Part shown: in pieces, positions 9,733 to 64,000 of the stretch | Layout: every line of letters begins with the position of its first letter | Numbering within the stretch: the first letter of the stretch is position 1 | IMG/VR virus record: IMGVR_UViG_3300043436_004623 | Span: 17,298-81,297 of that record | From: a virus | Taxonomy: Duplodnaviria > Caudoviricetes | Direction: 5' to 3' (one strand) | Length of the DNA stretch: 64,000 bases | Program-made: the position numbers and the translations under genes | The notes under the pieces: generated by a model | What the model saw: the letters and a program-made list of their open reading frames with translations, nothing else | Database searches by the model: none | What the model was told of the DNA's origin: nothing

Positions 9733-10716
9733 TTAAAGCTCTTCTTCTTCAAAAAAATCTTCAATATTTTCAAGATCTGGGTTTTCTGTAAAAATTTGAT
9801 CTTGATCAATGAATGTAGAATCATCCCATCCCCAATCCAATCCATCATCATCACTTAATAAAAGCTCTTCAGCAGATGCCATTGACGAAACAGGTTTAGC
9901 TGACCAGAATTTACAGCTCCAATAACGAGCTTTCCATTTTGGTCCGACATTAGTATCACATTGATGACGTGCTCTAAAACTTTTTCTACGTTCTGGATCG
10001 TCACGACGAATTTCCATATTTGGATCACCAAATTTAACCATTACGGTGTTGCCTTTATCATTTTTAACATAAACGCCAAATTTCTTATTTGATCCACTTG
10101 GTAATCTAAATGGTTTATTAAGAGTCTTTTTTTCAGCTTCAGAATAGTCGATATCATCTAATTCAATATCACCTTCTTCTTCAATATCCACACCAGCTTT
10201 AACTAAGTCAATACGAGCTAAATCAAAATCAATTGAATCGAATTCCCAAAAACAATCTTCTGGTTTTTGTTCATAGTAAAGTTCCTCACCTCTAGCAACA
10301 TCTTGATCTGCGGCACGATAAGAATCTTTAACTTTACCACCTTTCTGCATTTTTAAAAACATATTGACTCTGGCCATTGCCCAGCTATTTCTAGTCTGGC
10401 CAGGTCTATGAGAAACGGAAAATGCTCCAAGTCCACGACGATAGACTTTTTTAAGTTGATTTAAAGTAACTTTTTTATCATATTTTTCATTATGATCAGA
10501 GACTTTCTGCTTTAAAGAGTTAATTACTTTTTCAGTAAAAGTAATTTTTGAATCAGAATCTGAAGATGCTGAATCTGGTTTATTTTTTTCTGAACCCTTT
10601 CTACGCTCAGATGGTTTAGAAGGTGTTTGCGCTCCACTTTTTGGTCCAGGTCTTGATGCTGCATCAGACTCGACTCCAAAAAAACTTCTTAATTTAGATG
10701 AAAAATCAACTTCCAT
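9733..10716 (-). CDS. Hypothetical two-domain protein heading the glycosylation operon
   Basis: Basic domain YRRGLGAF...WAMARVNMFLK, then KKFGVYVK...VKFGDPNM...RRKSFRARH.C...ARYWSCK, acidic tail; GTGTAA motif 10 nt upstream. Confidence 0.7.
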   Translation of the reverse strand: MEVDFSSKLRSFFGVESDAASRPGPKSGAQTPSKPSERRKGSEKNKPDSASSDSDSKITFTEKVINSLKQKVSDHNEKYDKKVTLNQLKKVYRRGLGAFSVSHRPGQTRNSWAMARVNMFLKMQKGGKVKDSYRAADQDVARGEELYYEQKPEDCFWEFDSIDFDLARIDLVKAGVDIEEEGDIELDDIDYSEAEKKTLNKPFRLPSGSNKKFGVYVKNDKGNTVMVKFGDPNMEIRRDDPERRKSFRARHQCDTNVGPKWKARYWSCKFWSAKPVSSMASAEELLLSDDDGLDWGWDDSTFIDQDQIFTENPDLENIEDFFEEEEL

Positions 10717-13654: not shown

Positions 13655-13683
13655 TTGACATTTTCAAACATTTCAATTATACT
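13655..13683 (+). promoter_or_regulatory. sigma70-type promoter of the dut-ssb operon
   Basis: TTGACA-17-TATACT, 8 nt before ATG 13692. Confidence 0.8.
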
Positions 13684-13691
13684 TTAAAAAA

Positions 13692-13988
13692 ATGCTTCTA
13701 AATAATGAGGATGATTGCAAGTTATTCTTGTGCGCAAGTGCTAATTGGCAGTGCGTAGTAGAGTCATTTAGTTATGAGCAAGCTGCATCTAAAGCGGTGC
13801 AGGAGGCCGTGGATAAAACTGGAGAAGAATTTTCAATAGGCGCTGCGATTTCAGTAACAGAACTTTCTTTAAGGAAAAAAAACTCTATCTTAGTTTTCTC
13901 ACCAAGAGTACTTGCGGATATTGGAATGCACACCTTATCATCAAATTTACTAAACATAATAGATAAAGATACCAATGACGACGATTAA
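13692..13988 (+). CDS. Hypothetical protein
   Basis: ORF directly behind a consensus promoter and overlapping dut. Confidence 0.6.
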   Translation: MLLNNEDDCKLFLCASANWQCVVESFSYEQAASKAVQEAVDKTGEEFSIGAAISVTELSLRKKNSILVFSPRVLADIGMHTLSSNLLNIIDKDTNDDD

Positions 13989-14478: not shown

Positions 14479-15065
14479 CTACAATAATTGGAATTGCTGG
14501 ACCTGCAAGAAGCGGAAAGGATACCCTGTGCAATCAATTTCTTGAGATTTTTCAAGAAATGAACATAAAAGCTAAAAGATCTGCATTGGCTGATCAATTA
14601 AAACTAGAGTCTAAAGACTTTATTTTCAATACTTTGGGTATTGATGTCTTTACAGAAAAAACCGAAGAAAAGAATATTATTAGACCATTTTTAGTCACAT
14701 GGGGTACGCACGTCAGAAGAAAACTTGATCCAGATATTTGGATTAAAAAAATCCAAGACTCAATTGAAGAAAACTCAATCCTAATTGTACCTGATATAAG
14801 ATTTAAAAATGAATTTGATTGGGTTAAAAATAACAATGGCTATATGTTTTTTGTCGATAGGATTAATGAAAATGGAGAACTGGTCCCAGATGCAAATCAA
14901 GATGAGGCTGAAAATAATACGTTTTTAAGAGAAAGCTCTGATCATTCATTTGTATGGTCTACAACCGATGATAAAAAAATATTAATTTCTGTTGCTTTTG
15001 AAATTATATCTAATACAATAAGTGATCAACAACTTTCCATATGGAGACAGACTTATTCCTTATAA
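14475..15065 (+). CDS. Deoxynucleoside monophosphate kinase
   Basis: IIGIAGPARSGKDT, RPFL..WGT..RR, VPDIRFKNE. Confidence 0.85.
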   Translation: MTTIIGIAGPARSGKDTLCNQFLEIFQEMNIKAKRSALADQLKLESKDFIFNTLGIDVFTEKTEEKNIIRPFLVTWGTHVRRKLDPDIWIKKIQDSIEENSILIVPDIRFKNEFDWVKNNNGYMFFVDRINENGELVPDANQDEAENNTFLRESSDHSFVWSTTDDKKILISVAFEIISNTISDQQLSIWRQTYSL

Positions 15066-15610
15066 ATGAAATTAAAAATCACAATGACAACTGGTGTCTT
15101 AAAGAGTTAATTGATAGACACTCTGGTATTTATATGACTATTGTAAATAAGATTATATCTGATTCTTGTGATTTTGTTAATAAAACTGACGTTATAGCAG
15201 ATAAGGATTATACCATATATAATGCCGCATTAAAATATAATCCAGATTTAAATACTAAATTTCCTACGTATCTAGCGAATGAAACCCGTTGGAAATGTTT
15301 AAATTTATATAATAAGAATAAAAAAAGAAAAGAAGAACCTCTTGAGTATCATGAGAATGATAAAGAGGTTTCTGGTGATTTTGTTTCAGATTTACAAAAT
15401 TATGAAATACTTAATAAGATTTATAAATTAGCTGAAACACATGAAGACAAAAGAATCAAAAAAATCATTGACATGAGATATGGTTCGGACTATAATAAAC
15501 TCACACCTTGGAAAACTATTGCGAAAAAACTTAGGATGAGCATACAAGGATGCATCAATATTCATAATAAGTTTATAGAACAAACAAAGAAAGAATTAGA
15601 AAATGTTTAA
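15041..15610 (+). CDS. Phage RNA polymerase sigma-70-like factor
   Basis: LKELIDRHSGIY, AALKYNP...KFPTYLANETRW (region 2), MRYG...TPWKTIAKKL.MS.QG (region 4 HTH). Confidence 0.8.
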   Translation: METDLFLINEIKNHNDNWCLKELIDRHSGIYMTIVNKIISDSCDFVNKTDVIADKDYTIYNAALKYNPDLNTKFPTYLANETRWKCLNLYNKNKKRKEEPLEYHENDKEVSGDFVSDLQNYEILNKIYKLAETHEDKRIKKIIDMRYGSDYNKLTPWKTIAKKLRMSIQGCINIHNKFIEQTKKELENV

Positions 15611-17141: not shown

Positions 17142-17963
17142 ATGAATTTAAAAATAAATGTAGAAAAATCAAATATTATATTAAATAATTTAAATTTATC
17201 TAATAAAAAAATATCTCAATTAATAAATGTATCAGAAACTACTGTAGAAAAATTTCTTAAAAAGAGTGGTATTAAAAAAGGAAGGAGAAAACTCTCTTTA
17301 AATGAGTCTTTTTTTGAAAACATAAATACTAATGATAAATGTTATATACTTGGATTAATATATGCAGATGGGTGGAATAACGTCTCTGGTAATAGATGGG
17401 GAATTCAATTAACTAAAGATGATGAATATATATTATATGAGATATCTAAAATTTTAGACTACGGTGGTTCTATTAAAACCCTTAAACCATCTTGTGAAAA
17501 CGGAAAGTTAAGATCAAGGTTAGAATTATGTAGCAAAAAAATGTGTAACGATTTATTAAATTTAGGAGTTGTTCAAAATAAAAGTTTAGTGTTAGATTTT
17601 TATGAAGAAAAGCTCCCGTTAAACTTTATAAATGATTTTTTTAGAGGCGTTTTTGATGGAGATGGTTCTTTATATATATCACCTAAATTTACTCATTTTT
17701 CAGTAAAAATTACATCTTCTACTATATTTTGCAAATCTTGTCAAAGATTTTTAGAAAAACATATTAATTACAAACCTTCTTTAAAAATTTATAAACAAAA
17801 CCCTAAATCATGTGATTTAATTATTTCTGGTAGAAATAACGTATTAAATTTTTTAAATTGGATTTATAATAGTGAAAGCGATTTAAAACTTTCTAGAAAA
17901 TATAATAAATTTTTATCTATACCTAATGGACCTAAAAAAAATCCACACAACTCATCAAAGTAG
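17142..17963 (+). mobile_element. Free-standing LAGLIDADG homing endonuclease
   Basis: ILGLIYADGW and FFRGVFDGDGSL motifs, N-terminal HTH-like segment. Confidence 0.9.
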
Positions 17964-50487: not shown

Positions 50488-53400
50488 TCAATTAATAAAC
50501 ATTGGTGTGAATGTGGCTTGGACATTTTGCTCTTGAAGATTAATCATGTCAAAATATGTTTGCATCATCCAATTTCCTAAAACTAATGTGGAATACGAGT
50601 CTTTTCGAGCTTTATCTGCCCCTCTTTGTTTTTTCAAATTTAATGGGAGATCGAAACTCTGAGTTCCTTGAGCTGACGTGTTCACTTGAATAAGTGCGCA
50701 TTGTACTTTAATAAGTTCAACATTGTCTTTTAATTGTTCAATAAAATCAATTTGTCTAGCGCCAGATTCTTTTTCATCATCATGTCTAGAAAATTTTAAT
50801 GTTTGAATTGGGATATTAGCTAACCTTTGTTTATTATAAGCTTCATCCATTGCTGCGCCAGCGAACCATATTCTTTTATGGTCGAATGCGGCCTGTAATG
50901 ACTCGTTAGCATATCTAATCCAAGCTGAACTTGGTTTCCTCAAGTGAACTATTTTTCTTGTGGATATATTGTATTGATTTCTTGCGTCTCTAAGAGCTTT
51001 ATCGTATTCTTGTGGATTATCAAAATCCGCATCAAACATATCTAATTTAATACCAGCCTTTTTAAATATTTCACTTTCATTGCATGAATTAATGAATTGA
51101 ACACCTCCGTTATAGTCTCCAACAATTGAAACAATATTAAAATGAGCAATTAAGTAATGAATATATTCTATATGCTTTTTTAAATTTGTTCCAGAAAGTG
51201 CATAGCTGTGGACAACTACACCATTTCTTTTTTCTGGATTAATTTTAATTAGTTGCATAGAGAAGTCGTCGGAACCATCACTCTCTGACCAAGAAGGGTC
51301 AAATGCTAATATATATTGCGCTGTAGGATCTCCTATAACCTCAACAGCTTGCCCTTCTCCATCTGGTATAGTACAAAGCGCCATCTTACTTACCTTGAAG
51401 TATCCAGAGCTATCGTCAGTAAATACAGCACCAAACTCACGATCAAATTGAGATTGACTCATTGTAGCTTTTGCTTGATTAATTAAGTTCTGGTCATAAA
51501 GCTGATCTGGAGCGCAGTCATAACTAAAATGCATAATTACTCTATGAGCATTATCTTTTTCGGCGTTGTTTAAAATCAATGACTCATATTGTTGATATAA
51601 TTTATAAAGATATTCAAATTTATAACTTGCTGAAGACAGGCCAATAATTTTATTATTTGGCCAACGATAACGATCTTCTTCAGACATTTTACCTTGTTTA
51701 ATTAATGTACTTTCCAAATCATATAATTTTTGTCTTTCAGTTGGATTTTCTACAACAGAAAGGAATGGCAGAATAACTTCATTTAAAATTTTCTCTGGCA
51801 TCAAAAGAAGCTCATCGATAATCATCCTTTGGAAACGGAAACCGCGAAGTTTTTCACCATCACCAAGTGGTAATGCTGTAATCTTACTTCTTCCGATCTC
51901 AATAACCCACTCATCGTTTGTCTTAGATATTCTATTAATACATTGTGATAAAAATCCAGCCTTTGGACTGCGAGATATTTCCTCAATCTTACGGAAAATC
52001 ATTTTAGACTGCCTGAATGATTTACTAATAATTCCAATATGAACTCCTTGATTTAAAATTGCGTCTAAAATAGCAAAAATTGCAGTAGAGAAAGATTTAC
52101 TCATACCGCGAGAATTATGATGAACAAAACCACTACCAACATAACACTCCTCATTTTCTACAGTAATATCTATAGATTTAACAAGACAATTATCTATTGA
52201 TTTAATTGGCGAAAATACAACGTTTTCATTTTTAATACTATCAATAATTTGACGAGTATTATCAGAAATATTTATAAGTGAATCAAAATTATTTTGAGAA
52301 AAACCCTTACCCCAAGATCCTCTTTTACCAGTTACTTTTTCTTTTGAGCCGTCTTTTTTAATAATTTCGCAAAAATTTGGTATTAAGTTGTTTTGATAAT
52401 TTTTATTTTTTGATCTATTAATAATTTTTTCCAAATTGCTTTTCTTGTGAAAAACTTGAAAGTCTATTGAATTTTGAAACTCTCTCAAAGAATTAACATC
52501 ATTTGATATAACTAAATCATAATATGAGACTCCTTTATGCTCACCCGATTTTCTTAAATTAGATATTATTCCAAGATTATTTAAAATCATTTTAATCTGT
52601 CTAAGAAGTTGTAATGAAGTATTTTTTAAACCAACTTTACTGCTAGTAGATAAATATGAAGCATAGCCATCAGCATCAAACAATCCCCCAATTAGTGCGC
52701 ATAATTCATTTCTAGAACATTGTAAAATGGAATCACAGATAACTTTATCTTTTGATTTTAAAGATCTATCCCAACCTATACTTTCTAACCAAGAAACAAT
52801 CTCTCTATTAAATATTGAATATTCATAAAAACTTAAATTTTTTGTTCTTTGTCTTGCGTAACTTTTTAAATCATTATCTCTTAAAAACTTTAAGCAAGTC
52901 TCTTGTACTTCAAAATGTTCAGAACAATAATGAATTCCATCTTGATTAACCCATCCATCTCCTAAAACATAGCCAAGTAAATAAAATAAATATGGAGAGC
53001 GGTTTACTTTAGATCCTTCAGTTATATCTTTATCGCCCCATATTTCAGTAGCTATTTTAATTGGAATAGAATCTCCAATTTTTAAATTTTCAATTTCTTT
53101 AAAAACAAACTTGCCATCATCATAAACTAAAACTTTATGACCGATTTTTGCTTTAAAACTATCGCCAGATTGTAGTTTTATATCTAAACCTTGTTCTTCT
53201 GGATTTTCTTTTTTATCTGAAACAAGATTAATTTCATTTCTTGATCTGACATAATCTCCAATTTGGATCTCTTTAATTTTTTTAAATCCATTTTTTGATA
53301 AGACATATTCATTTTCTTCTAAACACCATATCCCCAAAAAGTAATCAGTTTCCATCATTGCTTTAATTGCCATGTGCTGGAATGGAAATAGCGAAACGCC

Positions 53401-53559
53401 AGTAATTAATTCAGAAGAGAAAGATGGGTTTTCTTTTAAAAATTTATATAATAAAATTTTAGCTTTTCTTTCATCAATAAAACCGTTTGTATCAAGAATT
53501 TCTTGATTAATATTTTTAAATTTTTTATTTAATTTTTGATTGCCAGTTTCCCAACTCAT
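50488..53559 (-). CDS. terL: Terminase large subunit with intein
   Basis: LFPFQ, Walker A SRGMSKS, LRGFRF, Walker B IIDE, nuclease LAFDPS...DDFS...RKDSYS. Confidence 0.93.
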   Translation of the reverse strand: MSWETGNQKLNKKFKNINQEILDTNGFIDERKAKILLYKFLKENPSFSSELITGVSLFPFQHMAIKAMMETDYFLGIWCLEENEYVLSKNGFKKIKEIQIGDYVRSRNEINLVSDKKENPEEQGLDIKLQSGDSFKAKIGHKVLVYDDGKFVFKEIENLKIGDSIPIKIATEIWGDKDITEGSKVNRSPYLFYLLGYVLGDGWVNQDGIHYCSEHFEVQETCLKFLRDNDLKSYARQRTKNLSFYEYSIFNREIVSWLESIGWDRSLKSKDKVICDSILQCSRNELCALIGGLFDADGYASYLSTSSKVGLKNTSLQLLRQIKMILNNLGIISNLRKSGEHKGVSYYDLVISNDVNSLREFQNSIDFQVFHKKSNLEKIINRSKNKNYQNNLIPNFCEIIKKDGSKEKVTGKRGSWGKGFSQNNFDSLINISDNTRQIIDSIKNENVVFSPIKSIDNCLVKSIDITVENEECYVGSGFVHHNSRGMSKSFSTAIFAILDAILNQGVHIGIISKSFRQSKMIFRKIEEISRSPKAGFLSQCINRISKTNDEWVIEIGRSKITALPLGDGEKLRGFRFQRMIIDELLLMPEKILNEVILPFLSVVENPTERQKLYDLESTLIKQGKMSEEDRYRWPNNKIIGLSSASYKFEYLYKLYQQYESLILNNAEKDNAHRVIMHFSYDCAPDQLYDQNLINQAKATMSQSQFDREFGAVFTDDSSGYFKVSKMALCTIPDGEGQAVEVIGDPTAQYILAFDPSWSESDGSDDFSMQLIKINPEKRNGVVVHSYALSGTNLKKHIEYIHYLIAHFNIVSIVGDYNGGVQFINSCNESEIFKKAGIKLDMFDADFDNPQEYDKALRDARNQYNISTRKIVHLRKPSSAWIRYANESLQAAFDHKRIWFAGAAMDEAYNKQRLANIPIQTLKFSRHDDEKESGARQIDFIEQLKDNVELIKVQCALIQVNTSAQGTQSFDLPLNLKKQRGADKARKDSYSTLVLGNWMMQTYFDMINLQEQNVQATFTPMFIN
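52114..53325 (-). mobile_element. 404-aa intein with LAGLIDADG endonuclease in terL
   Basis: Begins CLEENEYVLS after W78 and ends FVHHN followed by Ser; internal LLGYVLGDG and LIGGLFDADG. Confidence 0.95.
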
Positions 53560-58534: not shown

Positions 58535-58820
58535 ACAAAAGTACTTACACTTTTTCAGTCTGGGATTTTTTTTTATGTTTGGTATTGGTGAATTTAGATA
58601 GACCGATAACGTTTTCGACAAATGGGGGAGGGGTACGTTGGTTTGGAGAGGGGAGATTGAGGAAAGTGTCCCCCCGCCCTTTCCCACGCAAACGACTCGC
58701 AGTTTTTTTGAGAAATGGGGGGAGGGTGTCAAGTGTTTTCTTTAGAATCTCGCAAAATTCTTTTCGAAAAAAAACGATTTTTTTTCTTGTGATATGGGGG
58801 GTATCTGGTAATGTTCTTAC

Positions 58821-58991
58821 ATGTCAAACGAACTCCAACTCCTCCGCATCGGTGATGTAATCGAATCCAAGCAAGGCAAATTCAAGGTTGCCGACATTGT
58901 AGAAGAACAATGGTATGAGCCTTGGGTTGTGCTGGTAAAGTGGAACGGAAACGCTTGGGAAGATACGAGAATCCAATTCAAAGACCTCTGA
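58821..58991 (+). CDS. 56-aa early protein (MSNELQLLRIGDVIESK...)
   Basis: Manual translation; own promoter; below ORF-track cutoff. Confidence 0.75.
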   Translation: MSNELQLLRIGDVIESKQGKFKVADIVEEQWYEPWVVLVKWNGNAWEDTRIQFKDL

Positions 58992-59044
58992 AAATAAAAA
59001 ATCTTTTTCCTTGCTCTAACCTCAAAATCTGCTAACTTTCTCTC

Positions 59045-59203
59045 ATGTCAAACGAACTCGCCAACCTCTACAGCGCCGAAACTCTTGCCGCTCTTGCCGA
59101 ACTCGAAGCAGTCGCGCAACGCTTTGAGCAACTGGCAATCCGCACGGGTGAAAACGCCCAAGCATTCATCGAAGAATGCCGCGAAATAAAATGGGAAAAG
59201 TGA
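59045..59203 (+). CDS. 52-aa helical early protein (MSNELANLYSAETL...)
   Basis: Manual translation; own promoter; shares MSNEL start with the previous gene. Confidence 0.75.
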   Translation: MSNELANLYSAETLAALAELEAVAQRFEQLAIRTGENAQAFIEECREIKWEK

Positions 59204-59246
59204 AAATTTTCCTTGCGTTCCCTCTCTCATCTGCTAACTTTCTCCC

Positions 59247-59441
59247 ATGTCCAACACGACCACCACCACCCGCCCACGCATTAACTCCACCGTAGACTTT
59301 CGCTATGAAGGTCGCCGCTTCTGCGGTAGCGTCACCGATAGGAACACGCTCGACGGCGGCTTTGTCATCATCTATCGTGACCTTGCAGGAGATCGCGCAT
59401 TCATTGGCTCAAATCAAATTGAAATCATCAAAGTCTGGTAA
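59247..59441 (+). CDS. 64-aa early protein, paralog of 63233..63439
   Basis: Own promoter; MSNTTTTTRPRIN...GSVTDR.TLDG.F.IIYRD shared with the paralog. Confidence 0.85.
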   Translation: MSNTTTTTRPRINSTVDFRYEGRRFCGSVTDRNTLDGGFVIIYRDLAGDRAFIGSNQIEIIKVW

Positions 59442-59461
59442 ACATAACACATAGAAAAAAA

Positions 59462-59641
59462 ATGAAACACACACTAGCAATCCTTGGCTCTGCCATTGTC
59501 ACCATGTCGCCTGTCTTTAGCCTTTGCGCCTTCTGTATCTACGGAGGACGAAGCGAAGTGTTCGACGCTGTATGCTTCTTAACCTTTGGCGCGACCTGCT
59601 ACTGCCTCGCACATCTTCAATCATACATCAAACATAACTAA
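59462..59641 (+). CDS. 59-aa Cys-rich hydrophobic (membrane) protein
   Basis: Manual translation MKHTLAILGSAIVTMSPVFSLCAF...; A/C-rich leader. Confidence 0.6.
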   Translation: MKHTLAILGSAIVTMSPVFSLCAFCIYGGRSEVFDAVCFLTFGATCYCLAHLQSYIKHN

Positions 59642-59644
59642 CAC

Positions 59645-59869
59645 ATGAGCGCACGAAACAAAGCACGAAAGATGATCAACGCACAAGTCTACGCCATCAC
59701 AGGCTTGTCACTCGATGATCTACCCGACACCGCTCTTCTATGTGACCACATGGATACATTGGAAGAGATGATAGAAGAAGCGGACAGCATGACTCCCATG
59801 AGTGAGCTTCTCGACTACGCACAAGAAGCCGCAATGGAATTTCTAGAAGAAGAAGGAATGTCGGCATGA
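59645..59869 (+). CDS. 74-aa acidic early protein
   Basis: ORF track; ITGLSLDDLPD...acidic helical C-terminus. Confidence 0.75.
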   Translation: MSARNKARKMINAQVYAITGLSLDDLPDTALLCDHMDTLEEMIEEADSMTPMSELLDYAQEAAMEFLEEEGMSA

Positions 59870-59976
59870 GTGAAGAACTGCATGACATAGTTGCAAGCGC
59901 CGTGTGCTTTACTACTACGCTTGTAGTAGTATGGCACATTGTGCATAGCATAACTACATTGCCACTGCCTCTGTAA
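59866..59976 (+). CDS. 36-aa hydrophobic peptide
   Basis: ATGA overlap with the previous stop; its stop codon lies in the first bases of repeat element 1. Confidence 0.4.
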   Translation: MSEELHDIVASAVCFTTTLVVVWHIVHSITTLPLPL

Positions 59977-60049
59977 CTCGTTGAGAATGAGTGAGTTACG
60001 GGCGGGGGCGGGGCCGCGCCCCGTAACTCGTTGAAAATCAATGAGTTAT
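59973..60049. repeat. Palindromic repeat element 1 (27-bp palindrome, 23-bp GC core, 27-bp palindrome); core inverted relative to elements 2-4
   Basis: GTAACTC-N13-GAGTTAC, GGGCGGGGGCGGGGCCGCGCCCC, GTAACTC-N13-GAGTTAT. Confidence 0.95.
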
Positions 60050-60165
60050 GTTTTTCGCTTCTTTATCATAAATAATCAATCTGTCAAGAAAAAAGTGCGA
60101 AAAATAAAAAATAAAAAATGAAAAAAGATGTTGCATTTTATCGGTTCCGAGGTTATTCTTTGCGC

Positions 60166-60228
60166 ACGAGCTTCGGGTACTCGCTAAATCACTCTAGAGA
60201 GTTGAGCATCTCTTAAAACTGCTCACCA
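60166..60228 (+). ncRNA. Candidate small structured RNA with H-type pseudoknot
   Basis: Promoter TTGCAT-17-TATTCT (60131-60159) with no ATG downstream; hairpin CGAG/CTCG; pseudoknot AGAGA/TCTCT plus TGAGCA/TGCTCA with loop TAAAAC. Confidence 0.6.
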
Positions 60229-60294
60229 CTTTCCAAGCTGAAAAAAAACGAAAATTTTTCTTGCTACACTCCGAAAATCTGCTAACTTTCTCTC

Positions 60295-60522
60295 ATGACC
60301 AACACCACTACCACCGCCGCCTTGTTCCGCGCCACTAAAAACTTTACTGTTGCTTACTGGCACAGCAAGCACACCACCAAAATCACCAAGGGCGAAACGA
60401 TCATGCCAAACGAAAATTTCCGCATCTTGAATGGCTTCTTCTTCTGGGTTGAGCGCGTGAGCAATGAGCAAACCACGCAAATGACAAAACCCTTGCCAGT
60501 CGAATTGATCGAAGAAATCTGA
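60295..60522 (+). CDS. 75-aa early protein
   Basis: ORF track; own leaderless promoter. Confidence 0.8.
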   Translation: MTNTTTTAALFRATKNFTVAYWHSKHTTKITKGETIMPNENFRILNGFFFWVERVSNEQTTQMTKPLPVELIEEI

Positions 60523-60565
60523 AAATTTTTCTTGCCATTCTCTCAAAATAAACTAACTTTCTCTC

Positions 60566-60700
60566 ATGTCCATTGACCAACTCACCCACACCGATTCAGT
60601 CGAACTGCTCGCCGCATTTCACGAAGCCGCAACGCAAGCCATGTATGAGTGGCAAGCCGAACAAGCCGCCGAATACTTTTCTTCACTTCTTGAAAAATAA
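60566..60700 (+). CDS. 44-aa helical acidic early protein (MSIDQLTHTDSVELL...)
   Basis: Manual translation; own promoter. Confidence 0.7.
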   Translation: MSIDQLTHTDSVELLAAFHEAATQAMYEWQAEQAAEYFSSLLEK

Positions 60701-60741
60701 AAGTTGACGCAACACAAAAAAAATCTTACTCTTTCCCCGAC

Positions 60742-60891
60742 ATGAACACCACCGAATATAAAGAAATGTTTGCCAAGGTTCAAGCTGGCCAAATCACTCA
60801 ACAAGTCTGGTTTGACTACTGCTTCCAACAATTGAGCCAAATCATGGAAGACAACAAGGATGTTTTCATCCGCTTAAAAAATCGCGGATAA
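60742..60891 (+). CDS. 49-aa early protein (MNTTEYKEMFAKVQAGQIT...)
   Basis: Manual translation; own promoter. Confidence 0.7.
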   Translation: MNTTEYKEMFAKVQAGQITQQVWFDYCFQQLSQIMEDNKDVFIRLKNRG

Positions 60892-60965
60892 TAAAAAAAT
60901 AAATTGACACAATCCGAAAAATCTGCCATACTTCTCCCGCAACAATAAACAAAACAAAGCACACC

Positions 60966-61220
60966 ATGAACATAAACTACCAAGCATCCGCACTTGAAAT
61001 CGCAAACGCACTCGTCGGCAAAACCGTTCGCTACTTTGCGAATGATTCCAAAATCAAAAATGATGGCGTTCGCGTCTTCAAAGTTGAAGCAGTCGATCAT
61101 GTTTCGATTGGCAAAAAATCGGGTCGTCGTTATGTCACTATCCTTGCCAAGGATGTTGACGATGGCGGCGAAAGCAAGCATCGCAACCTTCACCTCGCGG
61201 GAATCGATCTCGTGGTGTGA
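60966..61220 (+). CDS. 84-aa beta-rich early protein
   Basis: ORF track; promoter TTGACA-17-CATACT at 60904-60932 and A/C-rich leader. Confidence 0.8.
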   Translation: MNINYQASALEIANALVGKTVRYFANDSKIKNDGVRVFKVEAVDHVSIGKKSGRRYVTILAKDVDDGGESKHRNLHLAGIDLVV

Positions 61221-61258
61221 GTGGTGAAGGGTGCTGGGCATCACACTAAAAGGCCCAC
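61213..61258 (+). ncRNA. Second H-type pseudoknot related to the 60196-60226 one, overlapping a stop codon
   Basis: GTGTGA/TCACAC plus TGGGC/GCCCA with loop TAAAA. Confidence 0.5.
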
Positions 61259-61283
61259 TTTGTCAACCCTAAAAAATAAAAAA

Positions 61284-61448
61284 ATGAAATCCGCCGTTCT
61301 TTGTCTTTTCTTTTCTTCTTTACACATTGCAATTTTTTCGATTGTGCAAGCGTATGACATCATACCACACGATCTAAACTTTATTGTTTTTTGGCTTTGC
61401 CTCGCGTTGACTTGGGCAGGGTGCTTCAAAAGCGCATTGCAAGAATAA
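61284..61448 (+). CDS. 54-aa two-helix membrane protein
   Basis: In frame with ORF 61221..61448; start at ATG after an A-tract; two hydrophobic stretches. Confidence 0.6.
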   Translation: MKSAVLCLFFSSLHIAIFSIVQAYDIIPHDLNFIVFWLCLALTWAGCFKSALQE

Positions 61449-61459
61449 TTTTTCGGGCA

Positions 61460-61505
61460 TGGGTGAAAAGTCGCGCCTCTGTGGTAGGGGGCGCGACTAC
61501 ACCCA
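61460..61505. terminator. Strong GC hairpin ending an early transcription unit (no U-tract)
   Basis: TGGGTG-AAA-AGTCGCGCCTCT/AGGGGGCGCGACT-A-CACCCA. Confidence 0.5.
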
Positions 61506-61511
61506 AAAGTC

Positions 61512-61572
61512 ATAACCGCTTGAAAATGAGCGAGTTACGGGGCGCGGCCCCGCCGCCGCCCGTAACTGTCAA
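61512..61572. repeat. Palindromic repeat element 2 (right palindrome truncated to GTAACTGTCAA)
   Basis: ATAACCGCTTGAAAATGAGCGAGTTAC, GGGGCGCGGCCCCGCCGCCGCCC, GTAACT. Confidence 0.95.
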
Positions 61573-61661
61573 GAAAAAAATGCAATTTTCTGAAAGTTTT
61601 TTTTTCTGCAAAAAGTGAAAATTTTTCTTGCGATATCGCGGGGATGTGATAACTTTCTTGC

Positions 61662-61799
61662 ATGACTGACAGCAACACCACCCCCGACACAGAAAACCAC
61701 AACGGAACTTTCGGCTTGAATGATCGCCCATCTTTCAGCGACAGCGAAGACTTTGGCTTGTTCGGTTGGTTGGGCGAAGAAGAGCAGGAAGAAAAATAA
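61662..61799 (+). CDS. 45-aa acidic early peptide (MTDSNTTPDTENH...)
   Basis: Manual translation; own promoter. Confidence 0.65.
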   Translation: MTDSNTTPDTENHNGTFGLNDRPSFSDSEDFGLFGWLGEEEQEEK

Positions 61800-61846
61800 G
61801 TAAACTTTTTTCTTGCTTAAATCATCCAATCAACTATCTTTCTCTC

Positions 61847-62002
61847 ATGTCTACCACATCACTCATCATCGCCATCGACAACCTCCGCAAGCAACTTGAA
61901 CTTTGCGAAGACTTCTCCGATTGGGAAGGTTGCGAAAGAATCGAAGAAGAAATTTCTTCTCTTGAAGCAATACTGGAAGAAAAGAATTTGACAGAAGCAT
62001 GA
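61847..62002 (+). CDS. 51-aa acidic helical-hairpin early protein (MSTTSLIIAIDNLRKQL...)
   Basis: In frame with ORF 61766..62002; start fixed by promoter geometry. Confidence 0.75.
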   Translation: MSTTSLIIAIDNLRKQLELCEDFSDWEGCERIEEEISSLEAILEEKNLTEA

Positions 62003-62121
62003 AAACCATCACCATCACCATCCAACCCGCAAAGCCTCGCATCCGCTTTGCCCCTGCAACGATTCGCTTTGTAGACAAAAAGAAAAAACAAAAAAAAGAA
62101 TCTTGCAGAAATAAAAATTGA
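61999..62121 (+). CDS. 40-aa highly basic peptide (MKTITITIQPAKPRIRFAPATIRFVDKKKKQKKESCRNKN)
   Basis: Manual translation; ATGA overlap with the previous stop. Confidence 0.55.
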   Translation: MKTITITIQPAKPRIRFAPATIRFVDKKKKQKKESCRNKN

Positions 62122-62155
62122 CAACCCGCCCCAAAAACTTTATCTTTCTCCCGCC

Positions 62156-62329
62156 ATGAAAAACGCAATACTCGAAAGCCTCTTCCTTCTTTCCTGCTCC
62201 ATCCTTTGCGGCTCTGGACTTTTCCTCATTGAATGCCCTGCTTGGTTGCAAAATAGTTTCCTTGCAATGATGGTTGCCCCAAGTCTCTGGTTTATTCCTA
62301 AAAGAATTTTCATCGAAATGAAAAAATAA
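62156..62329 (+). CDS. 57-aa membrane protein (MKNAILESLFLLSCSILCG...)
   Basis: Manual translation; own promoter TTGACA-17-TATCTT. Confidence 0.65.
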   Translation: MKNAILESLFLLSCSILCGSGLFLIECPAWLQNSFLAMMVAPSLWFIPKRIFIEMKK

Positions 62330-62368
62330 GTTGATAATCTCGAAAAAAAATCTTACTCTTTCCCCGCC

Positions 62369-62578
62369 ATGAAATACACCATAACACGCAACGCATTCGC
62401 CACCACCTACCGCACACCCTTGTTTGATCTTAAGATCCACAAGTTCATGAAGCATCCTCGCCCACTTTTGGTTTTCAGCGATGGACGCGAGGCCGCTAGC
62501 GTTTTTGTTGACAGAAAACAAAGCGCCGATCTTCTGCGAAATAAGTTTAAAAACCACATTGACAGACGCAACGCATAA
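62369..62578 (+). CDS. 69-aa basic early protein
   Basis: ORF track; own promoter TTGATA-17-TACTCT. Confidence 0.8.
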   Translation: MKYTITRNAFATTYRTPLFDLKIHKFMKHPRPLLVFSDGREAASVFVDRKQSADLLRNKFKNHIDRRNA

Positions 62579-62594
62579 CTAAAAACTCTTTCTG

Positions 62595-62696
62595 TCACCC
62601 GATAGATCGGTACGCCAGCACTAACGCTTGACGAGGTACAAGTACTTGAGCGAATAGGCTGGGTGGACGAGGTTCGACTCCTCGCGGGTGAGACCA
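62595..62696 (+). ncRNA. tRNA-like / tmRNA-TLD-like RNA lacking an anticodon loop
   Basis: Acceptor TCACCCG/CGGGTGA, T arm CGAGG-TTCGACT-CCTCG, encoded 3' CCA, stemless 13-nt D region, long irregular helix in place of the anticodon arm. Confidence 0.75.
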
Positions 62697-62717
62697 CTCA
62701 AACACAAAACAAAAAAA

Positions 62718-63071
62718 ATGAAATCATATATCATCATCCTTGCTGAAATTCTTTTAGTTATCATCTTTGCATCTGCTATGCCGATTGCTCTTTATGCTGG
62801 AGGACAAAACGAACTTGCTCTTTACTCTACTTATATCTTCGGAGCAATCATTCTTTGGTTTTCTATTGTTATGATACATTTAGAATACATTTCCCGAAAA
62901 GTTGGAAAAGAAGATAAACTGGAAAGGGCGAGACATCTTGGATACATACATGGACTAAAAGAAGGTGTTGACAATAACCCTTTTAAGGATGACACGGAAA
63001 GGCATGTGTATCGTTTGGGATACGATGCTGGCGTTTCCGAGTACTGCAGAGTGGCGCATCCAGAAGATTAA
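62718..63071 (+). CDS. 117-aa membrane protein with two N-terminal helices and a soluble C-terminal domain
   Basis: In frame with ORF 62688..63071; ATG after an A/C-rich leader; C-terminal ARHLGYIHG...NNPF...YRLGYDAG. Confidence 0.75.
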   Translation: MKSYIIILAEILLVIIFASAMPIALYAGGQNELALYSTYIFGAIILWFSIVMIHLEYISRKVGKEDKLERARHLGYIHGLKEGVDNNPFKDDTERHVYRLGYDAGVSEYCRVAHPED

Positions 63072-63083
63072 GCTTGACAAGTC

Positions 63084-63144
63084 GTAACTCGTTGAAACCC
63101 AGCGAGTTACGGGGCGCGGCCCCGCCGCCAGCCGTAACTGTCAA
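63084..63144. repeat. Palindromic repeat element 3 (right palindrome truncated)
   Basis: GTAACTCGTTGAAACCCAGCGAGTTAC, GGGGCGCGGCCCCGCCGCCAGCC, GTAACTGTCAA. Confidence 0.95.
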
Positions 63145-63232
63145 GAAAAAAATGCGGTTTTGTGAAACTTTTTTTCTCATAAAAAATGATTTTTTTTGTT
63201 GCGTTTCGAGCGAATTGTGATAACTTTCTTAC

Positions 63233-63439
63233 ATGTCCAACACGACCACCACCACCCGCCCTCGCATCAACACTCTTGTTCAATTCACCTATTGCGGAAT
63301 GAATCTGACTGGAAGCGTCACCGACCGCGACACTCTCGACGGCGCGTTCATTATCATTTACCGCGACCCATACTGCGGCGACCGCTGCACGGTTGCATCG
63401 AGCCGAGTTGAAAATCTGAAAATTTTTCACGGAAAATAA
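63233..63439 (+). CDS. 68-aa early protein, paralog of 59247..59441
   Basis: ORF track; own promoter; clear sequence similarity to the paralog. Confidence 0.85.
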   Translation: MSNTTTTTRPRINTLVQFTYCGMNLTGSVTDRDTLDGAFIIIYRDPYCGDRCTVASSRVENLKIFHGK

Positions 63440-63483
63440 AAAGTTTTTCTTGCGTTTCTCTTAAAATCCATTAATCTACTCCC

Positions 63484-63687
63484 ATGTCCAACACCTACCA
63501 CGCCACCGAAGTTTCCCCCGAAGAATACACCGCCACTCTTGCGGAAGCCGCCGAGCTTGCGCTCGCGGACTACCACGCGCACCTCGACCAGCTTGAGGCC
63601 CAGCGCCAGCCCGACGATTCGGATTGGAACTACCACCCCGAAGACGACTACAACGAATACACGATGGGCTACGATGGCGGCTTCTGA
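63484..63687 (+). CDS. 67-aa very acidic early protein
   Basis: ORF track; own promoter; D/E-rich with spaced Tyr/Trp. Confidence 0.8.
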   Translation: MSNTYHATEVSPEEYTATLAEAAELALADYHAHLDQLEAQRQPDDSDWNYHPEDDYNEYTMGYDGGF

Positions 63688-63704
63688 GTCGCCCCATCGC
63701 CTTT

Positions 63705-63781
63705 CTAACTCATTGAAAACAAGCGAGTTACGGGGCGCGGCCCCGCCCCCGCCCGTAACTCATTCAAAACCAATGACTTAC
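63705..63781. repeat. Palindromic repeat element 4 (complete)
   Basis: CTAACTCATTGAAAACAAGCGAGTTAC, GGGGCGCGGCCCCGCCCCCGCCC, GTAACTCATTCAAAACCAATGACTTAC. Confidence 0.95.
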
Positions 63782-63801
63782 AGCGGCCCATGTAGTCTAT
63801 T

Positions 63802-63902
63802 AGCTATTAACTGATTTGCTATTTGCTATTTTGCTATTTGCTACTGTTGATTTGTCAATAACAAAATTGCAGTTTGATTTGTCAAGAAGAAAATTGCAGT
63901 TT
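63802..63902. repeat. GCTATT micro-repeats followed by a tandem 27-bp-period direct repeat
   Basis: About five GCTA(T/C)T units; TGATTTGTCAA-N5-AAATTGCAGTTT at 63848-63875 and 63875-63902. Confidence 0.8.
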
Positions 63903-63952
63903 ATTCTGAAAATAAAATTTGACACCTCGCGTCTTTGTGTTAAGTTTCCCCC

Positions 63953-64000
63953 ATGCAAATCATTAACCACATCCTGTCACTATTCACACGCGACCGCAAA
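63953..64000 (+). CDS. Early protein, truncated by window end (MQIINHILSLFTRDRK...)
   Basis: TTGACA-16-TAAGTT-6 nt-ATG. Confidence 0.65.
   Translation, partial: MQIINHILSLFTRDRK

Follow-up and report, generated by a model that had tools for sequence, protein, structure and literature searches.

The window analysed here, a 64,000-nucleotide stretch of a tailed virus (Duplodnaviria; Caudoviricetes; IMG/VR record IMGVR_UViG_3300043436_004623, positions 17,298 to 81,297), ends in an array of 20 small, presumably early open reading frames (ORFs) and 14 predicted promoters, all of which point rightward. We consider it likely that the sigma-70-type promoters of this array abut the ATG start codons, so that leaderless mRNAs would be made, and that the repeated promoter-start units, referred to here as heads, together with a few GC-rich elements, are points of recombination between related phages. 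We observed a stereotyped head geometry and its conservation, a bias in the composition and folding of the first codons, purifying selection on the ORFs, and breakpoints of homology at the heads. These features suggest which polymerase would read the heads, where transcription would start, that the genes would be expressed early, and that their translation would be leaderless. The source appears to be a large siphovirus-like phage, aquatic and uncultured, with a very long tail, whose early genes would begin in the stretch from 58.5 to 64 kb; judged from a close relative (IMG/VR record G001), its early-gene region is probably about 12 kb long.

Direct reading and a regular-expression scan both recovered ten heads of the form TTGnnn-N16-TAnn[TC]T-N6-ATG (Table 1), which confirms the count given in a preliminary description of this DNA, including the TGn extension ahead of the -10 box in seven of the ten. 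Three further genes had been described there as having a longer gap between -10 box and ATG, and we found that these class-2 heads have a 17-nt spacer and a gap of 9 nt in each case. The heads have an A/T tract upstream of the -35 element, and they form an 8-copy repeat family of 77 nt in a repeat search. Conservation is focused on the -35 TTG, the TGn, the -10 TAnnnT, and the C at -1 and A at +1, which are invariant, while the spacer is variable; a C at -5 is present in 10 of 10 heads. Codon 2 is Ser or Thr in nine of the ten and is followed by A/C-rich codons, as had been noted before, and the typical N-terminus reads Met-Ser/Thr-Asn-Thr-Thr.

The heads are largely confined to the array. The 64-kb window has six exact copies of the string TTG-N19-TAACTT, all of them between 59 and 64 kb and on the plus strand; with one mismatch allowed the string is no commoner than in shuffled sequence, and only the exact heads stand out. 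Generic promoter scanning overlooks the heads, as TAACTT and TTGCnn agree with only 8 of the 12 consensus bases. We built a weight matrix from positions -38 to -5 only, which contains no information on the ATG, and applied it to the window. This promoter-only matrix gave 10 strong plus-strand matches at 58.8-64 kb, a single weak match elsewhere, and none on the minus strand. The features expected of a strong promoter (a -35 TTGnnn, a spacing of 16-17 nt, a TG-extended TAnnnT, and an upstream A/T tract) are present at the level of sequence.

The -10 hexamer lies at -12 to -7, and therefore the A of the ATG is the predicted +1, placed after the invariant C as in a preferred pyrimidine-purine start; published numbering, too, has +1 at a distance of four to five nt downstream of position -5 (PMC6847099). 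A -10 box located 6-8 nt before an ORF is the signature of bacterial leaderless genes (PMC6028130), with experimental evidence in Deinococcus (PMC12340547). Leaderless translation is determined by accessibility of the start codon, a leader of zero length, AUG identity, and downstream CA repeats (PMC9031893; 10.1101/2020.05.06.081141). In the window, nucleotides +4 to +33 contain 48% C and 10% G, compared to 26% C and 24% G in the remainder of the same ORFs, and the G content of the first 30 nt is 8-12% across the protein families. Over their first 40 nt, the predicted mRNAs have a mean folding energy of -1.4 kcal/mol, versus -6.8 kcal/mol for ORF-internal windows, and none of 20,000 resampled sets of nine inner windows attained the observed mean. 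ATG is the sole start codon among the heads. The leaderless mRNAs put forward in the preliminary description thereby stand as a prediction, based on a +1 on the A of the ATG, the C at -1, the exclusive use of ATG, and CA-rich unstructured 5' ends. Comparison of the ORFs with their most divergent orthologues gave a pooled pN/pS of 0.26, and the ORFs are therefore real genes under purifying selection.

We found the same layout in related phages. G001 is 95-98% identical over the region, and its array extends another 6-8 kb. Farther along, this array encodes GP88-family and Api92-like proteins, each behind the -10/6 nt/ATG layout, and it also contains DUF932, SprT-like, and L5-gp82-like genes. 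A pattern scan of IMG/VR returned approximately 12 more contigs with several heads apiece. Within these related contigs the promoter-only matrix gave 84 matches, and an ATG lies exactly 4 nt past the end of the matrix in 84 of 84. Together with the heads of the window these sites amount to 93 head-driven ORFs, which reduce to 45 distinct heads, 50 distinct proteins, and approximately 13 protein families. One class-2 head, TTGAyA-17-TACTCT-TTCCCCGCC-ATG, precedes five different genes. A more distant relative, G002, is complete (146.9 kb; large terminase, TerL, 54% identical) and contains 57 TTGAC[AT]-N16-18-TAnnnT sites, with the first ATG exactly 6 nt past the -10 box in 23 and 5-7 nt past it in 29. 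The G002 sites with the -10/6 nt/ATG layout include genes of 200-400 amino acids (aa) and span approximately 60 kb; their promoter sequences differ from the heads of the window while the layout is the same.

We propose that host RNA polymerase would use ordinary sigma-70-type promoters and start on the A of the ATG at the ten heads, which would yield leaderless mRNA, while the three class-2 heads would yield leaders of 2-3 nt. The first ten or so codons, being C/A-rich, G-poor, and unfolded, would leave the 5'-terminal AUG open to the ribosome, and these codons match the CA-rich stretches that, placed downstream of the start, are known to boost leaderless translation. A single repeated unit of approximately 75 nt would comprise promoter, ATG, and first codons. 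Recombination between such units, and at the four GC-rich terminator-like elements, would add, remove, move, or replace genes between related phages.

The array is not a row of isolated cassettes. Only 14 of the 20 ORFs have their own promoter; the other six have starts that follow A-rich leaders or overlap the preceding stop codon, and the earlier description of one promoter for each gene was overstated. The terminator-like elements, which are GC-rich and roughly palindromic, number only four (z -3.1 to -5.2); they place a strong GC-rich structure ahead of 4 of the 14 promoters, and the remaining heads have an A-tract/T-tract and no stable hairpin. With so few terminator-like elements, RNA begun at most heads must continue into the cassettes that follow, and in such longer RNAs the same ATGs would be internal. 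By analogy with a proposal for picocyanobacteria (PMC5607370), the pyrimidine tract before the ATGs in these read-through RNAs might serve an S1-type route that is independent of a Shine-Dalgarno (SD) sequence.

We aligned the region (BLAST) with 12 related loci and grouped the positions at which homologous blocks end into clusters, with the zone of a head defined as -60 to +30 of its ATG. Of 29 breakpoint clusters, 16 lie in heads (24% expected, p = 3e-4), and 20 lie in heads or GC-rich elements (p = 7e-5). Individual cassettes differ accordingly in place and presence: the cassette at 61662 occupies another position in G001, and the cassette at 60742 is absent from several relatives, with both junctions within heads. 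Furthermore, one identical head, spacer included, precedes a 64-aa gene in the window and an unrelated 102-aa gene in five relatives, and homology stops approximately 18 nt after the ATG. This indicates that the recombining unit includes the first codons, which is why unrelated proteins share Met-Ser/Thr-Asn-Thr-Thr. Each cassette had been called a self-contained, swappable unit; the breakpoints in heads and the 64-aa/102-aa replacement bear out that cassettes are swappable, but with four terminator-like elements in all they are not self-contained.

The absence of SD sequences is a property of the whole phage and nothing special to the cassettes. All but one of the 19 small ORFs of the array lack an SD core, so the earlier statement that the cassettes lack SD sequences holds for 18 of 19, but it is not specific to them: among 42 large ORFs across the window, a 4-nt SD core between -16 and -5 precedes only 3, compared to a 4% background. 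In G002 the values are 8% and 6.6%, respectively. Since SD sequences are missing phage-wide, the host evidently does not rely on them.

A functional reading of the array, which could add to the leaderless promoter reading rather than replace it, is that of a takeover module whose strong promoters soak up host RNA polymerase and whose leaderless mRNAs outlast a block of canonical initiation. The layout is like that seen in SPO1's host-takeover module, with many small early genes behind strong promoters (PMC6873191), and small proteins that are acidic (8 of 19) or hydrophobic (5) are typical of early host-interaction ORFans. One ORF (62718-63071) also has a weak Pfam match to ribosome modulation factor (RMF; E = 0.01, below the cut-off). 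However, late genes also lack SD sequences and the host probably does not use them, so a block of SD initiation would not separate host from phage, and the premise that these mRNAs stay translatable while canonical initiation is shut down, as proposed in the preliminary description, is gone. The RMF match was not reproduced against solved structures, and no ORF matches a known shut-off protein in Pfam or PHROGs, which leaves the host-takeover module of that description unsupported by any recognisable shut-off function; the proposed titration of host RNA polymerase likewise finds no support in the sequence. In G002, moreover, large ordinary genes use the layout over approximately 60 kb, which suggests a general mode of expression rather than a special module. 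We regard the takeover reading as unlikely.

Somewhat harder to sustain, and in our view improbable, is that the heads are recombination or boundary repeats, or translation signals, rather than active promoters. Polycistronic RNAs would then come from a few upstream promoters, and the ATGs would be used internally and independently of SD sequences, for example by ribosomal protein S1 on the pyrimidine tract TTTCTCTC. The heads clearly act as recombination sites, the 20 ORFs share only four terminator-like elements, the six headless ORFs need internal translation without SD sequences in any case, and S1-dependent initiation on pyrimidine-rich leaders is the route proposed for picocyanobacteria. 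Conservation that falls on the -35 TTG, TGn, -10 TAnnnT, and C-1/A+1 and spares the spacer is nevertheless the footprint of a promoter. Distant G002, with different head sequences, still has TTGACA-17-TAnnnT-6-ATG, and strict ATG use with unstructured 5' ends suits a 5'-terminal start codon. That the heads are middle rather than immediate-early promoters, read by a phage-modified polymerase (through a phage sigma or, in the manner of T4 middle promoters, a sigma-appropriation factor), is very unlikely despite their unusually conserved flanks (GAAAATTTTTCTTGC; the invariant C at -5 in CTTTCT), since a normal -35 TTGnnn at 16-17 nt with an extended -10 box is all that the host holoenzyme needs, the sigma-like candidate gene at 15041-15610 has no Pfam match and only a marginal PHROG match, and the GTGTAA motif before late genes is the better candidate for a phage factor.

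Several points weigh against the leaderless promoter reading itself. The whole case is built on sequence, with start sites, transcripts, and proteins all predicted, and the assignment to a host sigma-70-type promoter follows from the consensus alone. The phage may encode a sigma-like protein of its own, which Pfam did not confirm. With four terminator-like elements, most genes would also lie within read-through transcripts, and their expression may be truly leaderless only in part. The contigs that yielded the 84 matches were recruited by a pattern demanding one head with CATG, so only their other heads are independent evidence. Lastly, BLAST alignments run into the shared heads, which inflates the breakpoint statistic, and breakpoints are not independent events.

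We asked what the sequence indicates about the host. Cultured phages gave no megablast match to the region, and TerL has distant matches only (below 30% identity, to Bacillus, Lactococcus, and Clostridium phages), which come partly from an intein. Close homologues of the sugar dehydratase and of the GP88-family early protein are found on contigs of metagenome-assembled genomes (MAGs) assigned across many phyla (Maricaulis, Verrucomicrobiales, Neomarinimicrobiota, Porticoccaceae, Flavobacteriaceae, and Bacteroides); the majority probably belong to phages and were placed in the wrong bins. Counting TTGAC-N-TAnnnT-N6-ATG in five such genomes gave no excess in Pelagibacteraceae and Flavobacterium and a small excess in the other three, which in the Neomarinimicrobiota bin, the only one inspected, comes mainly from one phage-like contig. 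The actinophage marker WhiB was not found in three related records. A Bacteroidota host, suggested by the SD-free genome and by the TTG-N19-TAnnTTT spacing, is unlikely. Bacteroidota sigma-A promoters have a nearly invariant G at -5, a -33 TTTG in place of TTGACA, and TAnnTTTG (PMC6847099), while all ten heads have C at -5 and the canonical TTGACA -35 is used by class-2 heads, by a promoter at 13655, and by G002. Two observations concern the MAG contigs themselves. On unrelated aquatic MAG contigs (L058, L059, L061, L062), the ATG of GP88-family genes is again preceded by a -10 box at 6-8 nt, and a 100-kb contig in a Neomarinimicrobiota MAG (L075-L077, G007:C6), which contains numerous TTGACA-17-TAnnnT-6/7-ATG units, resembles a further phage of similar style.

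The window as a whole has approximately 30% G+C and is part of an AT-rich large phage genome, with genes for a 2728-aa tape measure protein, tail proteins, the large terminase, ribonucleotide reductase, and dUTPase and a block of sugar-modifying enzymes. At a boundary near 58.5 kb the G+C content rises abruptly: structural and metabolic genes have approximately 30%, the early region has 43-45%, and every gene from the boundary onward is on the plus strand. The bodies of early-region ORFs have approximately 50% G+C, whereas the complete relative G002 is uniformly at approximately 40%. The early genes may have come from a gene pool of higher G+C content, or there may be different selection on their mRNAs. 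The divergent intergenic region between a tail-fibre-like gene and the first cassette contains a G-rich direct repeat, AAATGGGGGAGGGGT, at 58612-58634 and 58705-58727.

Other features of the window concern promoters and the terminase. A consensus promoter, TTGACA-17-TATACT, at 13655-13694 (plus strand) is separated by 8 nt from the ATG of the ORF (94 aa) that heads the dUTPase/kinase operon; this near-leaderless promoter indicates that such a layout is not confined to the small-gene array. The motif GTGTAA(A/T) is found approximately 5-20 nt before the ATG of many late or structural genes (for example at 10716, 25142, 38325, 40452, 42388, 44097, 50441, and 57666) and is a candidate for a late promoter, in which case the leaders would be very short. 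The large terminase (50488-53559, minus strand; 1023 aa) contains an intein, with Pfam Intein_splicing at residues 98-482 and LAGLIDADG_3 at 287-354. TerL of the relatives G002 and G003 is 635-640 aa and is without residues ~78-482, and the 'helicase' and 'RecA' matches of TerL in cultured phages are probably intein-to-intein.

We found no Pfam or PHROGs match for 19 small ORFs of the array, of whose products 8 are strongly acidic and 5 hydrophobic. An AlphaFold model of the 64-aa family (pLDDT 82) has disordered residues 1-10 followed by a five-stranded small beta-barrel, and Foldseek returned only weak generic Sm/KOW/Tudor-like matches for this model. ORF 62718-63071 (plus strand) encodes 117 aa with two predicted membrane helices, and the gene is absent from G001. 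Its C-terminal part was considered as a ribosome modulation factor and rejected, with a Pfam score of 16 bits at E = 0.01 against a cut-off of 27.9 and no phmmer match in the PDB.

The features of the array are collected in Table 1. ARAGORN and Rfam made no calls in the window, including the tRNA-like stretch at 62595-62696 and the non-coding stretch at 60050-60260. Just upstream of head 10, positions 63816-63900 contain four copies of TTTGCTAT and then two copies of a 27-nt tandem repeat with the near-palindrome TTGATTTGTCAA; these repeats look like an operator or iteron.

Table 1. Heads, ORFs, and structured elements of the predicted early-gene array, in window coordinates.
Feature	Coordinates	Strand	Description
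Head 1	58787-58823	+	TTGTGA, 16 nt, TG-extended TAATGT, 6 nt, ATG 58821; 56-aa ORF, end 58991
Head 2	59011-59047	+	TTGCTC, 16 nt, TGcTAACTT, 6 nt, ATG 59045; 52-aa ORF, end 59203
Head 3	59213-59249	+	ATG 59247; 64-aa small beta-barrel protein (predicted), end 59441
ORFs without own promoter	59462-59641, 59645-59869, 59866-59976	+	After head 3
Structured element 1	59962-60048	.	GC-rich, roughly palindromic, terminator-like, followed by T-run; -46 kcal/mol, z -5.2
Non-coding stretch	60050-60260		After element 1, behind its own promoter-like site
Head 4	60261-60297	+	ATG 60295; 75-aa ORF, end 60522
Head 5	60532-60568	+	ATG 60566; 44-aa ORF, end 60700; without TG extension
Class-2 head	60704-60744	+	TTGACG, 17 nt, TACTCT, TTCCCCGAC, ATG 60742; 49-aa ORF; predicted leader 2-3 nt
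Leadered promoter	60904-60968	+	TTGACA, 17 nt, TG-extended CATACT; 33-nt CA-rich leader without SD; ATG 60966 (84 aa)
ORF without own promoter	61284-61448	+	After 84-aa ORF
Structured element 2	61507-61614	.	GC-rich; joined to A/T tract of head 6 as composite terminator-promoter unit
Head 6	61628-61664	+	ATG 61662; 45-aa acidic ORF; cassette elsewhere in relative G001
Head 7	61813-61849	+	ATG 61847 (51 aa)
ORF without own promoter	61999-62121		After 51-aa ORF, overlapping stop codon
Class-2 head	62118-62158	+	TTGACA, 17 nt, TATCTT, 9 nt, ATG 62156; 57-aa membrane ORF
Class-2 head	62331-62371	+	TTGATA, 17 nt, TACTCT, TTCCCCGCC, ATG 62369 (69 aa)
tRNA-like stretch	62595-62696		Ends in CCA; without own promoter
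ORF without own promoter	62718-63071	+	After tRNA-like stretch
Structured element 3	63079-63186	.	GC-rich, joined to head 8
Head 8	63199-63235	+	ATG 63233; 68 aa, paralogue of 59247 gene
Head 9	63450-63486	+	ATG 63484; 67-aa very acidic ORF
Structured element 4	63694-63807	.	GC-rich
Head 10	63919-63955	+	TTGACA, 16 nt, TGtTAAGTT, 6 nt, ATG 63953; ORF continues past window end

The closest known counterparts are the promoter-early stem-loop (PeSL) cassettes, which T4-type phages have in their hyperplastic regions (Arbiol et al. 2010, PMC2839356; Comeau et al. 2014, PMC4122927). As in PeSL, strong sigma-70-like early promoters are repeated among small genes of unknown function, the repeats are sites of gene gain, loss, and replacement between related phages, and there are composite terminator-plus-promoter units, four in this array. 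In contrast to PeSL, the promoter abuts the ATG with no leader or ribosome-binding site, the repeat reaches approximately 20-30 nt into the coding sequence, and the stem-loop is missing from most heads (4 of 14 promoters have a strong GC-rich structure). Nor is the phage T4-like, given its 2728-aa tape measure and a TerL that is nearest to those of Bacillus siphoviruses at below 30% identity, although no search was aimed at T4 core genes. The array, which is real and well conserved, is thus best described as a predicted leaderless version of a regulatory cassette type already known from phages, and it falls outside PeSL proper on the stem-loop and on the T4-type phage.

Comparison with bacterial leaderless genes gives a similar mixture. 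A -10 box 6-8 nt before the ORF defines 'group C' of GeneMarkS-2 (PMC6028130) and is known from Deinococcus-Thermus (PMC12340547, PMC4007540) as well as from Actinobacteria. The array shares with such genes the TAnnnT 6 nt before the ATG, the AUG start, the accessible 5' end, and the lack of SD sequences, but it differs in its strong -35 element, TG extension, and A/T tract and in the repetition of one stereotyped head as a mobile unit. Furthermore, Actinobacteria and Deinococcus have SD sequences on leadered genes, whereas this AT-rich genome is SD-free even there. Among phages, Thermus phage phiYS40 reportedly has leaderless transcripts. Bacillus phage SPO1 has a host-takeover module (Stewart et al. 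1998; PMC6873191) that resembles the array in layout only, as a block of approximately 12 kb with some two dozen small early genes and many strong host-type promoters; SPO1 genes, however, have strong ribosome-binding sites and demonstrated shut-off functions, while the array has no SD sequences and no known functions.

If the predicted starts hold, this phage family would express its early genes, and in G002 many larger genes as well, without a 5' leader from a genome that is SD-free. The host would then be a bacterium that joins canonical sigma-70 promoters with routine leaderless, SD-independent translation. To our knowledge, no aquatic model organism in culture has been documented to have this combination. 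The concept of promoters that act as recombination handles, drawn from PeSL, would no longer be limited to T4-type phages and would take in a unit that sets the first codons of a protein as well. Gene callers that rely on ribosome-binding sites would misplace such starts, and the geometry would be useful for the annotation of viromes; the compact 75-nt head could, in addition, be used as a part that supplies promoter and start codon when genes are expressed in SD-independent bacteria. More tentatively, and with somewhat less than even confidence, we suggest that promoter, start codon, and approximately 10 CA-rich, G-poor codons may constitute one mobile expression element, carrying the signals for both transcription and leaderless translation and providing unrelated proteins with a disordered tag, Met-Ser/Thr-Asn-Thr-Thr. 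Initiation that is leaderless and SD-free might then be the default for a group of abundant aquatic phages that includes this long-tailed family and, by implication, for an abundant host lineage whose mode of initiation has yet to be described.

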